In this document: one piece after another, positions 22,001 through 28,000 of the stretch
Layout of the letters: each line of letters begins with the position of its first letter
Position numbering within the stretch: position 1 is the first letter of the stretch
Source of the DNA: Escherichia coli O157:H7
Lineage (GTDB): Bacteria > Pseudomonadota > Gammaproteobacteria > Enterobacterales > Enterobacteriaceae
Assembly: GCF_013167455.1 (NCBI RefSeq)
Contig: NZ_CP038332.1
DNA length: 64,000 nt
Direction: 5' to 3' (one strand)
Made by a program: the position numbers

Positions 22001-25000
22001 CCCGAGCATACGACCATAACGATCTCGCTGAAAATATGTGACGGTAACCGTTTTTCCTGCAACCAGTGATTTCATCATGTCTGTCGACCACCGGCCATAA
22101 TCCTGTTTCTTTTCCGGCGCATCAATATTTACCAGCCTGATCCGCACCGCCTTCCGTGAGTCCATGACCTCGATGGTATCACCGTCCAGTACACGAACAA
22201 CCCGTCCATGAATATCTGCACACAATACCGGCCATGAAAAGATAAATAATACCAGTGGAATATATTTCCTCATGTTATTCTCCGTATCAGATAAATAGCA
22301 CCTGTATTTCAGGCATCCTGAATATTGCAGCACACACTTAATAACACCTTATTTTGTGAAATTAATCACAAAATATAAAATCACGACTTAATACGGAAAA
22401 AACTCTGTGCTACTCAGAACTGGCCGGTCATACTGCCCGACCGGATATTAAAAAAAGCAAATCTCATGCATTATTCAGCCTTCTGAATCCCTGGAGTAAT
22501 GAAGGCTGCTTTTTTCGTTACCCCCTTCCTCGGCAGCGCCGGTGGCAGTGTTCAGCCCTTTTTCGGGCAAACTGCTGCCAGTCAGTCCGGGGTGCAACAC
22601 CGGCAGCCCGTCGCCATGCTTCTGCCGCTTCCATCCAGCGTCCACTGACTTCCAGAATAACGGCCCGGCTTCCGGCACGCTGGTAACGCCAGACCTGACC
22701 GTTCCGTGAACTGTTTCTGAATCCATTCATCTTTATCACTCCTCTTTAACCCGTCAGTATTATGGTGTTAAATAATCTACTGAATTGGCTTCCTTTCGGG
22801 TACGGAAGTTATTTCCTTTTAAGCCTTATTTCCCTGCCTCCTCTCTCTGAGGGAGGCTTTTTTTATTTCTCATCAAGCACGGCCTGAAGTTCTGCCTTTA
22901 TCCGGTTCTGGCGGCGGATTTTATCCAGACGCGCTGCCGCATACGCTTCCTCCTCCTGAGAAATATGCTCCGTCACATACCCTTCCGTGTCATACCGGCA
23001 GGCACCGGCTTTCATGGCACACAGATAGCTTTCTGAACGGGTGATGGCCTTCAGCGCCCTGCGCAGCTTTTTATGCGAGAGCGGGATATTCCGCTGCGCC
23101 ACGTCTTCCAGTAACACGTCCCGGATACCGCAGGCCAGAAGCCGGGGCGTGTCACCGTCAAATAATCCCGGCCACCAGGGTTTCAGGGTGTTCACGGCCT
23201 CATCCTGCGTGGGCAGGTTCAGATAAATGGACAGCGCCTGTCTGGCCTGCGCTTTTTTTGCCGCCAGCTCCGCTTCCCGGGCTGCTTTCTCGGCCAGCTT
23301 CTGCTTTTTCACCTTCCATTTTGGTGGCGTGGTGACATTGATGATGGTTTTCCGGCTGCGGACAGGCGTCTCTCCTTCCGTTTTCCGCTTCAGTGTCAGT
23401 ACCGGTCGTTTTTGCTCTGCCATGCTTACTCTGACCTTCGTGAAAATATGCCCTGCAGGCCGTTGAAACGGCTCATCGTAACAGGAAGTTAATTTCAACG
23501 ACCTTTAACGTATAAATACTGACAATTAAAGATATTGTTTAAACCATTGTGTCTGCACAGCTACTACACGTTCAAAAAACGCGCCCTCATAAATATCATA
23601 ATGGCATGCATCAGCTTCCTCGTATAATTCCTTAGTACCAGAAGCAACAGCATCATATAATGCTCTTCCCTGTTCCGGTGGATTAACGCTATCCTGGCCG
23701 GCAATAACAACCAAAACTGGGCACTGGACGCTGGCTGCACTCTCTGCCGGTTTATATTGCAACGTTTCCATGACCGTAAGGAAAGGTATTTTTATATCCA
23801 TTTCGGGATGCCGGGCTTTGATTTTCTCGAAGAATACCTTCGATTCATCATCACTTAGTACCCGTGTAACCCCCACAAACATCTCTTTCCCGGTGTTTTT
23901 CTTCTTCTCTGCCATTTTATTCAGCGTGGATAGAAAAGACGCTCTCTCCGATTCATTCATCTCTCCGGTAACCAGAACATCACCGTCAGCAAAAGCCAGC
24001 TGGCTGACAATACATTTTACGCGTTGGTCCTGCGCAGCTGCACTGAAGACATGCCCCCCTCCCAGCGATGTTCCCCATAACCCAATACGCTGATTATCAA
24101 TACATTCCTGCTTTTCTGCCCAATTGATAACTGAAATAATATCTTCGGTCTGCATTGCAGGAACCAGACGCCCTCGTTCTCCATCACTCTCACCGAATCC
24201 TCGATAATCAAAAGTAATCGTTGCGAATCCTGCTTCTGTGAAGGCATTCGCAAAGCAAGGGAGCAGAACATTCCTGATACCGCAAAACCCATGGCATAAG
24301 ATAATCAAAGGATGTTTTATATTTCCTTCAGGAACACGAAATGTCAGGGCAATACCTTCAGAGAGTTTGTGATCCGTAATTTTCATAAATATCCTGTGTT
24401 ATGTTGTTTATTAATAAGCAGAATCAGCGTCAGTATCATACCAGTCACAACGCCAGAATGCCCAGCACAGCCAGATGACAGCCATAGAACGTCGGGAAAA
24501 AATCTCCGGGCCAGAAACGGGGTAATGATTTCCCTGCACAGGACACCAGACCAACGGTCAGCACCGTCATCACAAGACCAGCTACAGCCGCCGCATCACT
24601 GGAGGCAAGGTTAAGTGCCGGAATCACGGCCAGCAGGCATGCAACCAGCACCAGACGTTCCGTTCTGTCTTCCGCCCGGTACAGCCGGTGGCTGACTGCC
24701 AGCATCAGCAGCCCGGCAATGCCGTAACTGGTGCCGGACAAAGGCCCCCACAGTGCCATCAGGAGAATGGCCGCTGCTGTACGCCACCCACTGCGCGTTT
24801 CACACCACGTCAGCACCTGTGCCGCCACTGCAAAGGCAAACAGGATATTCCCCTCATACCACGGAAAGCCTGCCAGATAATACGCGAACTGGGCAATAAT
24901 TCCCCATCCCCACAGCCGGTTAATGGCCGACTGCCTGATATGCGCATGGCGGGACAGATTCAGCCCCCACACCAGAGCAAACAACGGAAAGGCTCCACGC

Positions 25001-28000
25001 CCGGCCAGAAACATCCACGTCTGGTCCAGATGCAGAATGCGGTTTGCGTGGTCCAGTACCATCAGCACCAGTGCCACCGTTTTGATGATATCCCGCTGTC
25101 CGGGTGACCAGACCAGCAACGACTGCAACCAGGTATCGGTCCGGGCAGCCAGTGAATCGTTACGTGTCGTGTTCGTGTTATCCGTTGTCATCAGTGTTTG
25201 TCTTCCTGTATCAGTCTCCGCCCAGGGTTTTCTCTTTCTGCAGGTCACGAACCATATCCCGCTCCATCTGCTGCAGTCGCTCCTGCAGCAGGTTTTCCCG
25301 GACAACCTCACGGACCGCCTCCCGCTCCCGTTGTGGTTCACGCAGTACACTCTCCGGCAGCGCGGCTTCCCGTTCAGAAGTGACAGCCCGTTCACGCTCC
25401 TGCCCGGCAATCTCCCTGACAGCCTGCTCTGTTCTGCCGTCCGGCAGGTCAGGTTTGTTCTCTGCCATTTTACGGACAATTTCATCTGCGCGGCGTTCCG
25501 TTTCACGGCGGATGGCCTCTTCAGCCTGCCGCTGTGCCAGTACCTCTGCCGTGACCGGCTCGCCATTTCCGGCTCCCGGCTGGACGCTGTTGTCCGGGAT
25601 ATCCCCCCACACGCGACCACCGGTGATGGCACCGGGATTCCACGGACGACCTTCACCGGCGATTCTCACCACCACACCGCTGTCAGGATTATCACGGGCA
25701 ATCCGGACACCATCCTGCATATTATCAGCCAGCAGGCTCTCTCCGTTACGGCTGCCCTGCAGGGCCACGAACTGCGCATCCCCGCTGCCTTTCACCCGTC
25801 CTTCACCACTGAATCCCCGCAGCCCGTTTCCGTCATCCGTGGTCAGCGGGTTCAGCCAGATACCGGCAGACTTGCCGTTACGGTCAAACGCCGGCAGTGC
25901 CACATACGGCTGTGGATATTTACGTCCCGGAGCAATAAACCGTGCAGGACTGTCTCCCCCGGCAAGCCCCGCCTGACGAAGAACGGCACGCCCTGCCGCC
26001 ACGTCCCGCAGCTCCCGCGCCGTACTGAACAGCCGCTCTGCATTCATGACCTCCCGGTCCGGTTTCGGTTCAAACACATCGTGGGCTGTTCCTTTCTGTA
26101 CGGCATTGTTAATGGCATCCGTCCAGCCCTGACGGTTATCGGTGTACACCTGCACATGCTGCTTCATACGCGACAGGGCCACGTAGGCTGACTCAAAGCC
26201 GGCCATCAGTTTCCGGCTGCCTTCCGTACCTTCAAGCGCGATGGCAAAGGTTTCACTTGCCCCCTGCGCACCGTGAGCGGTGATGGCATAGGCCAGGTCA
26301 ATATGTTGCTCTGCCCGCTCCTGGGCGGGGCGAATCACCCGGGTCTGCTGTCCGCCCGACAGCGTGACACTGTCACCGGAAACCGCTGTCACCGTCCAGA
26401 CGCTGTTGGCCACATAACCACGCCCCCGGTCACTCTTCGTGAAGCGCATCCGGTCACCGGTCCCCACCCTGATGGTGTCCGGGGGGTACAGTGTGACGCC
26501 TTCAGCCACCGCCTCCCGGGGCGAAATCAGCCGCGTGTTACCTTCCGCATCCTGCAGAGTTATCAGCCCGTCATCCCTGCTGATACCGGCAATCCGGTGA
26601 TTGAACCGCCCCGGAAATCCTGGAGACTAAACTCCCTGAGAAAGAGGTAAACAGGATGACTAAAAATACTCGTTTTTCCCCCGAGGTCCGTCAACGGGCA
26701 GTTCGTATGGTTCTGGAAAGTCAGGGCGAATATGACTCACAATGGGCGGCAATTTGTTCCATTGCCCCAAAGATTGGCTGTACACCAGAGACTCTGCGTG
26801 TGTGGGTTCGTCAGCATGAGCGGGATACCGGGAGTGGTGATGGTGGACTCACCACCGCTGAACGTCAGCGTCTGAAAGAGCTGGAACGTGAAAATCGTGA
26901 ACTGCGCGTTCAGTTCTTCCGGCTACTGAACCGTCGATATGAAAAAGCGAGCATCATACTGACGTCAAACAAAGGGTTCGCAGACTGGGGAGAAATGTTC
27001 GGAGAGCATGTGCTGGCAACAGCGATCCTGGACCGGCTGCTACATCACTCAACCACGCTGAATATCAAAGGAGAGAGTTACCGGTTCAATATTCCAGACA
27101 GACTCGTGGTTCATTTGAGCCTCCATGCTCGCCCTGAACTCCGGGCACACAATACGTGATGTCTCCCGCCCACTTCTGGTTCGGGCCACTGGCGTAAAAA
27201 TCCTGCTCCAGCAGATTTTCTGACACAGGCTGGCTGTGTGCGCGGTAACAGACCGGACTGAAATTCCAGGAAGCTTTTGCCCTCAGTCCGTGACGGCGCA
27301 GGCTTTCCGTCACGGTTTTTACTTTAAAATGGTAACCCTGGGCACGCAGTTCATCCATCAGGCGTTTCGCGAAGTATGTCGTGGCCTTTGGAACGTCTGC
27401 TGATGCTGGGTAAGATTAGTCAGCAAATTCCGCATACAGGAAATCAGCGCTACTTTTTTGAGGGGACAATAACCTTAAGAGTGATAAAGATTATATGCTT
27501 TTCATAGAGAGACTCATCTATACCTGTAATACTGAAAAATGTATTGTTTTCTAGGAAGTTTTTTTGAGTGAGCGTATTTTTATCCACAACAACCGAATTA
27601 CTCGAAGAAGCAATTTTAAAAAATATTTTATATATATCACTATTTTGTTCACGAAAGTAATCCTTACTAAATGAATTAAAGCTAAACTCAATATGCTCAT
27701 AATTAGACAATTTTATTGTATCTCCTACAGCCACACTTTCTTTTGACCAGAAACGACATGTCGAGTATGCGTATATAGATAATGACATATTGGCAATACC
27801 GTCTTTTCCAGCATACTCAGAAACAGTATGTATATATCTATTGATAATATTGTTCTGTAAATACGAATACGTTGGATTTCTATATGCTTCAATCAAATCA
27901 AATAATTCATGTGAATATAAAGAAGGGAATGAGTTAGAGTAAAGTGGATTATGCAAGATAAAACATCCATTTTTTAATGGAGTAGGGTAAAAAAACAACC

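Follow-up and report, generated by a model that had tools for sequence, protein, structure and literature searches.

A probable passive relic of the distal F-like transfer operon beside the RepFIIA replicon of the Escherichia coli O157:H7 virulence plasmid pO157

We present an analysis of a stretch of 64,000 nucleotides from contig NZ_CP038332.1 (RefSeq assembly GCF_013167455.1) of Escherichia coli O157:H7, referred to below as the window, which is pO157, the virulence plasmid of this organism, in an orientation reversed relative to the record of strain Sakai. The subject is a short block of genes consisting of the 3' end of traI followed by traX, orf286 and finO. The results suggest that this segment is very probably a passive relic: what is left of the distal part of an F-like transfer operon of the R100 type, cut inside traI by the end of an insertion sequence (IS) of the IS629 type. 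The FinO protein encoded at its end has no cis partner and would be an orphan in O157, without a dedicated function. The arrangement itself is already known, both from the original pO157 annotation and from later work: loss of the transfer region has been reported together with the nesting of toxB in IS3, IS21 and IS629 sequences (PMC7175801) and has likewise been described elsewhere (PMC2806823), and traI and nikB are listed as pseudogenes in 164 plasmids of the pO157 type (PMC11229322).

Results

TraI codon 1295 abuts the outer end of the IS629-like element exactly: homology to F, which blastn follows from nucleotide 3881 of F traI to the end of the gene at 95% identity, ends at position 26601, and position 26602 is the first base (TGAACCGCCCC...) of the terminal repeat of the element, after which the start of orfA follows. 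The remnant corresponds to residues 1295-1756 of F TraI (96% amino acid identity by tblastn); F residues 1-1294, the first three-quarters of the protein and with them the relaxase domain, are missing, and as a gene the remnant is dead. A previous inspection of the window from its letters alone, called here the sequence-only reading, had placed the cut at an IS629 end at 26602 and described traX, orf286 and finO as intact, and all of its coordinates hold. The cut by IS629 stands, with the refinement that only 306 bp of the element are left, fused to a fragment of an IS21-family istB gene and followed by an IS3-family fragment (Table 1). A complete IS629, with 1310 bp, both ends, orfA, orfB and the frameshift pseudoknot, was not found at the break, where only the left end is present; the ALIL pseudoknot is confined to the window's two other copies of the IS629 type (13180-13296 and 58650-58766). 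The piece at the break is 94.8% identical to the intact IS629 of the window (58312-59625, the matched part being 58312-58620).

Two further observations concern the IS stub itself. An open reading frame (ORF) of 167 amino acids on the + strand (26656-27159) encodes the N-terminus of IS629 orfA (HTH_Tnp_1) and continues in frame into the IstB C-terminus; this ORF is a side product of the junction between the two IS fragments at ~26907 and no real gene. Many pO157 variants also carry a 2.44-kb ISEc8 within the IS629 stub beside the traI break (~26659-26668; NZ_CP038368.1 7670-10109), as shown by a 10-bp overlap of two alignment pieces, and this insertion is missing from the window.

Table 1. Features of the surviving transfer segment and its surroundings (window coordinates)
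Feature	Position	Strand	Characteristics
RepFIIA replicon	19527-20941	-	repA1, tap, copB/repA2; from ORFs and annotation in pO157 records
CopA RNA	20469-20557	+	Rfam, 99 bits
finO	22863-23423	-	ORF of 186 amino acids; Pfam FinO_N 1.4e-38 and ProQ/FinO 4.1e-27; annotated as FinO in pO157 records
orf286	23526-24386	-	286 amino acids; Pfam Abhydrolase_1 6.8e-34; GTSLG nucleophile elbow at residue 105
traX	24445-25191	-	248 amino acids; Pfam TraX 2e-67, full length; homologue of the F-pilin acetylase
traI 3' remnant	25211-26601	-	463 open codons; TraI_C domain only; no start codon at the junction
IS629-like left end	26602-26907	+	terminal repeat and 5' part of orfA; 306 of 1310 bp; HTH_Tnp_1
IS21-family IstB C-terminal fragment	26908-27100	+	Pfam IstB_IS21, residues 81-144 of the chimeric ORF
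IS3-family transposase fragment	27151-27366	-	annotated as IS3 Tra5 in Sakai; lies before toxB
toxB	27450-36959		between inverted IS3- and IS21-family fragments

The remainder of the transfer operon was sought by tblastn with 39 translated F genes, a set that starts with three ORFs of the leading region, upstream of oriT, and extends from traM to traX. The search covered Sakai pO157 in full, the window, and the part of plasmid p17B6-1 that lies outside the window (28.5 kb). Plasmid p17B6-1 (NZ_CP038415.1) is the closest complete record found, with 100% identity over window positions 39001-64000 and 99.95% over 1-30312, and the part of it beyond the window contains ISEc8, the etp type II secretion genes, the ehx haemolysin operon and RepFIB. 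In Sakai pO157 and the window only the C-terminus of TraI and TraX were matched, and the additional part of p17B6-1 gave no credible match, a trbG hit with E=0.006 in the gspE region being noise. The oriT-traM-finP-traJ DNA of F had no blastn match in any of the three sequences. Neither FinP (RF00107) nor the traJ 5' untranslated region (RF00243) was matched by Rfam models in the window or in Sakai positions 1-46500, even at E<=10, and the same models recovered FinP (97 bits) and the traJ 5' untranslated region (125 bits) in the F plasmid as a positive control.

The sequence-only reading had assumed a plasmid without traJ, and the absence of both traJ and finP is thus borne out by Rfam and tblastn with F as a control; a complete tra region elsewhere on the replicon, which would contradict a truncated operon, was looked for and is not there. 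Measured against an F-like operon (MOBF12 / MPF-F), pO157 has distal traX and finO in canonical order beside a RepFIIA replicon and lacks a relaxase trans-esterase domain, oriT, traM, traJ, traY, traA to traG, and TraD. The FinOP system is incomplete: FinO is present, and neither finP nor traJ, both of which were looked for, is there. PLSDB types the pO157 records as non-mobilizable.

The FinO protein has the FinO_N and ProQ/FinO domains of its family and is identical at 147 of 152 residues (97%) to the FinO that was crystallised (PDB 1DVO), with W36 kept and five substitutions (T54A, L73Q, M124L, V160A and E164A). Judged by its sequence it is intact, and the protein is likely to be produced and to retain RNA binding. 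We scanned for terminators of the type found in the known ligands FinP and RepX, defined as a GC-closed hairpin of at least 9 bp with purine-purine mismatch flanks and a U tail (PMC12001967, PMC8136791). The scan recovered FinP in F and gave six weak hits in the window compared with a mean of ~4.6 in shuffled sequence, none of them FinP-like, which is a weak negative given that the pattern is poorly defined by only two known ligands.

The Salmonella plasmid pSLT presumably carries an IncFII-type replicon. The CopA RNA of RepFIIA was also considered as a client of FinO, and this candidate was dropped; El Mouali et al. make no mention of CopA (PMC8136791).

The question of decay or constraint was approached through sequence differences. 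The 6-kb stretch around the surviving tip is 100% identical to hundreds of pO157 plasmids, Sakai AB011549.2 among them, and copies of pO157 differ from each other by 12-16 substitutions per 30-42 kb (0.03-0.05% difference; 99.95-100% identity). Because the copies differ so little, intact ORFs of 0.5-0.9 kb are the neutral expectation. In the O157 strain AR-0427 (pAR-0427-2, NZ_CP044150.1) finO is split by an intact 1310-bp IS629, inserted after about codon 113 at the equivalent of window positions 23084-23087 with a 4-bp target duplication, so that in at least one isolate the plasmid can do without finO.

Substitutions specific to pO157 were counted against four conjugative relatives. The traI remnant has nine nonsynonymous (N) and ten synonymous (S) changes, traX has 0N and 7S, orf286 has none and finO has one (L73Q); the difference between traI (9N/10S) and the other genes (1N/7S) gives a Fisher P=0.19, and the events are too few to show constraint. 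A second comparison used the distal tip aligned from ten Shigella pINV plasmids. Among these ten, traI varies at 72 sites (42N:30S), contains 11 frameshifting indel blocks and remains intact in S. dysenteriae E670/74 alone, whereas traX and finO together vary at 13 sites (5N:8S) and contain no indels. The N:S contrast between traX plus finO and traI is not significant (P=0.23). The indel contrast is a non-significant trend under equal per-base rates (P=0.087), in which some of the 1-bp indels may be assembly errors. The pINV plasmids thus show a slight tendency towards constraint on traX and finO, which does not amount to evidence of it.

The TraX protein of pO157 is 93% identical to F TraX (tblastn). 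No match to TraA, the pilin that TraX acts on, was obtained by tblastn of Sakai pO157, the window and the remainder of p17B6-1, and TraX is thus without its pilin substrate on the replicon. The seven pO157-specific substitutions in traX, all synonymous, are clustered within 123 bp (24862-24984) and are probably an imported recombination patch rather than independent mutations. The product of orf286 has both the fold domain and the GxSxG motif (GTSLG) of an alpha/beta hydrolase. The main tra promoter, which lies upstream of traY, has been lost, and a -35/-10 pair at 24464-24435 on the minus strand is a candidate promoter for orf286-finO.

On the side away from the break, finO lies 1.9 kb from RepFIIA (copB/CopA/repA1). 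On the other side, the IS3-family fragment before toxB is an inverted duplicate of 37812-38027 (99.5% identity), and the IstB fragment at 26910-27019 has an inverted copy at 37214-37324 (86% identity), which suggests that toxB arrived or was rearranged as an IS-bounded block. Homology to the F-like leading region runs to hok/sok and stops at ~41271, from where the order is a nikB-like ORF, a TolA_C ORF, IS3 and IS21 fragments, toxB, fragments of IS3, IS21 and IS629, and the traI stump. The nikB-like ORF (39245-41218, - strand, 657 amino acids) lacks a relaxase domain, TraI_middle being its sole domain, and it is a second conjugation relic unrelated to the traI tip; the ORF that follows it (38746-39177, - strand) encodes a TolA C-terminal domain.

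The window begins within a copy of ISEc8 (1-1023), and the insertion of a group II intron with its reverse transcriptase in Sakai pO157 (AB011549.2 35665-38070) is missing from it at ~54844-54845. Apart from these two points there is no difference of substance between the window and Sakai pO157. The tip sequence and its junctions are identical in the pO157 plasmids of Sakai (AB011549) and EDL933, where the original annotation lists a truncated traI, traX, an unnamed ORF and finO.

Discussion

The exact junction at codon 1295 is observed directly, and the events behind it can be proposed as follows. An IS629-like element sits in traI at codon 1294/1295, and its insertion, followed by IS-mediated deletion or rearrangement, would account for the loss of everything beyond it: oriT, traM, finP, the genes from traJ to traD, and traI up to codon 1294. 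Where the lost operon would be expected there are debris of IS629, IS21 and IS3, the toxB island and the unrelated nikB stump. The tip presumably survived because it lies on the replicon side of the IS break, so close to the essential RepFIIA, and because 2.2 kb of small ORFs would not have had time to decay in a lineage as young and clonal as that of pO157.

Several points weigh against a purely passive relic. The order of the rearrangement steps is one that we infer, and the left boundary at ~41271 beside the nikB stump is not an IS end. Essentially every pO157 record has finO, traX and orf286 intact, and in ~50 annotated records of Shigella pINV traX and finO are intact and traI is rarely listed as an intact coding sequence; the indel trend among the ten aligned pINV plasmids points in the same direction. 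RNA sequencing of EDL933 lists finO as differentially expressed after ciprofloxacin, hence the gene is transcribed (PMC11125564). Finally, FinO has one known natural ligand outside FinP and traJ, since the FinO of Salmonella binds RepX and its antisense target, the repA mRNA, of the IncQ plasmid pRSF1010 (PMC8136791).

Some of these points can be read as signs that FinO was kept by selection because it chaperones other chromosomal or plasmid RNAs in O157. The sequence-only reading had left two possibilities side by side, co-option for other RNA targets and a gene not yet decayed. Retention of a protein so close to the structurally characterised FinO, its transcription, the precedent of RepX as a second natural ligand and the decay of traI next to intact traX and finO on the tra-less pINV speak for co-option, and the recurrence of plasmids that keep only traI, traX and finO, in Shigella and in Shiga toxin-producing E. 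coli (STEC), has been called puzzling (PMC5102898). Against co-option stand the natural finO::IS629 insertion in an O157 plasmid, the failure to find FinP, the traJ_5 element or a FinP-like terminator RNA on pO157, and the selection tests, none of which is significant (P = 0.087-0.23). In Salmonella, FinP and RepX make up 99% of the small RNA reads bound to FinO (PMC8136791), which points to a narrow specificity. Natural loss of finO is documented as well, as a pseudogene in a tra-deleted Salmonella cluster where the deletion boundary reached finO (PMC11229322) and as the finO::IS3 mutation of F (PMC5102898). With a precedent in RepX and no positive support on pO157, co-option for other RNAs appears improbable to us, and the low divergence of pO157 copies, the finO::IS629 plasmid and the want of a FinP-like RNA favour a gene that has not yet decayed.

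FinO of FinOP systems is not plasmid-specific, FinP is, and the FinO of R100 represses F. The only activity that can be predicted for the FinO of pO157 would be in trans: it may inhibit fertility by stabilising FinP when an F-like plasmid enters the cell, or bind the RepX of an IncQ plasmid. The tip might then have been kept because FinO represses F-like transfer via FinP, or lowers IncQ copy number via RepX, to the benefit of the resident, non-transmissible plasmid or its host. Sakai and EDL933 are not known to contain an F-like or IncQ partner plasmid, there is no sign here of frequent encounters or of a selected effect, and the natural finO::IS629 argues against this role too. It is favoured by the lack of plasmid specificity and by the sequence of the protein, which is intact. 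The regulation of pRSF1010 across plasmids by the FinO of pSLT also speaks for it (PMC8136791). We regard retention for such a trans effect as highly improbable.

A further explanation would be that the tip is kept because the neighbouring region of ANR, nuclease, hha and RepFIIA depends on a cis element in it, for instance a promoter or the end of a transcript. We know of no such dependence, pINV tolerates IS insertions between finO and repA, and none of the candidate elements falls within the traX, orf286 or finO coding sequences. The tip does always adjoin the ANR/nuclease/hha/RepFIIA region in F-like plasmids, and two elements that could serve are close at hand, a + strand terminator at the finO stop and the AS-pc02 RNA 240 bp away. 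Retention for a cis element has, in our judgement, hardly any likelihood.

Both elements deserve description in their own right. The hairpin at 22836-22857 (GCCTCC...GGAGGC, then T7) resembles an intrinsic terminator of the + strand and abuts the stop codon of finO exactly; it would halt transcripts convergent to finO, and no terminator for finO on its own strand is obvious. AS-pc02 (22437-22621, + strand; Rfam match of 205 bits) is downstream of finO and antisense to a gene for a small regulator of the ANR family (22518-22730, - strand), and this RNA was first described on the IncFII plasmid pHK01.

The passive relic thus remains the explanation that we prefer. The segment is a textbook case of IS-driven segmental deletion, by which a conjugative F-like plasmid becomes a "domesticated" virulence plasmid that is inherited vertically. 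The broader question is whether the repeated occurrence of intact finO and traX next to RepFIIA in tra-less plasmids of pathogens reflects a deletion gradient anchored by the replicon or selection for a trans-acting FinO. We consider it unlikely that an orphan FinO, perhaps together with TraX, is under purifying selection on the tra-less plasmids of O157, Shigella and other STEC for a role beyond FinP and traJ, be it as a chaperone of other RNAs or as a trans brake on F-like or IncQ plasmids.

Comparison with known plasmids

The gene order traI-traX-orf286-finO is shared, collinear and without gaps, with conjugative F-like plasmids of the R100/R6-5 type, and the block is covered to at least 80% in at least 2040 PLSDB records, mostly of conjugative plasmids. 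Plasmids of the R100 type possess traI in full length and the entire operon upstream of it, finP and traJ included, whereas in pO157 everything upstream of TraI codon 1295 is gone. The nearest conjugative relative, CP057536.1, is 97.5% identical overall and ~99.4% identical over orf286-finO, has a full traI and shares its downstream neighbours with pO157 as far as repA2.

The plasmid pSFO157 (NC_009602.1) is often named as the ancestor of pO157. As the direct ancestor of the tip it was rejected: it is only 95% identical, has a traX-finO junction of the F type (121185/1) without orf286, and carries its copy of orf286 (20743-21603, 92% identity) ~20 kb away near RepFIB. From these differences it follows that the tip of pO157 is an R100-type mosaic, and the location of orf286 in pSFO157 shows that this gene behaves as a movable module. 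It is present in pO157 as in R100-like tra regions and absent between traX and finO in F, pSFO157 and pINV.

The pSLT plasmid of Salmonella, whose FinO (with the ligands FinP and RepX) shares its protein family and domain layout with that of pO157, is the precedent for action of FinO on the RNA of another plasmid (PMC8136791). It differs from pO157, where no RepX-like or FinP-like RNA was found, in that it retains finP, traJ and a working tra operon. F (finO::IS3) and pAR-0427-2 (finO::IS629) are natural finO knock-outs by IS3-family elements, which show that these plasmids survive without finO; in the window finO is intact.

The closest parallel to the overall arrangement is pINV of Shigella, an independent tra-less virulence plasmid that also has a distal tip beside RepFIIA (PMC6489325; PMC5102898). 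Its tip consists of a traD stub, vapBC, a traI pseudogene, traX and finO, of which traX and finO are intact and traI has decayed. It is ~95% identical to the tip of pO157 and differs from it in having no orf286, in the presence of vapBC upstream and in a traI that is full length and frameshifted rather than cut by an IS. Other plasmids retain more or less of the region: pO145-13516 has finO and traXIDTSG (PMC3893438), and pO55 has traIX (PMC2806823). Such nested distal remnants beside RepFIIA fit deletions that start in tra, are of variable reach and are unable to cross the replicon.

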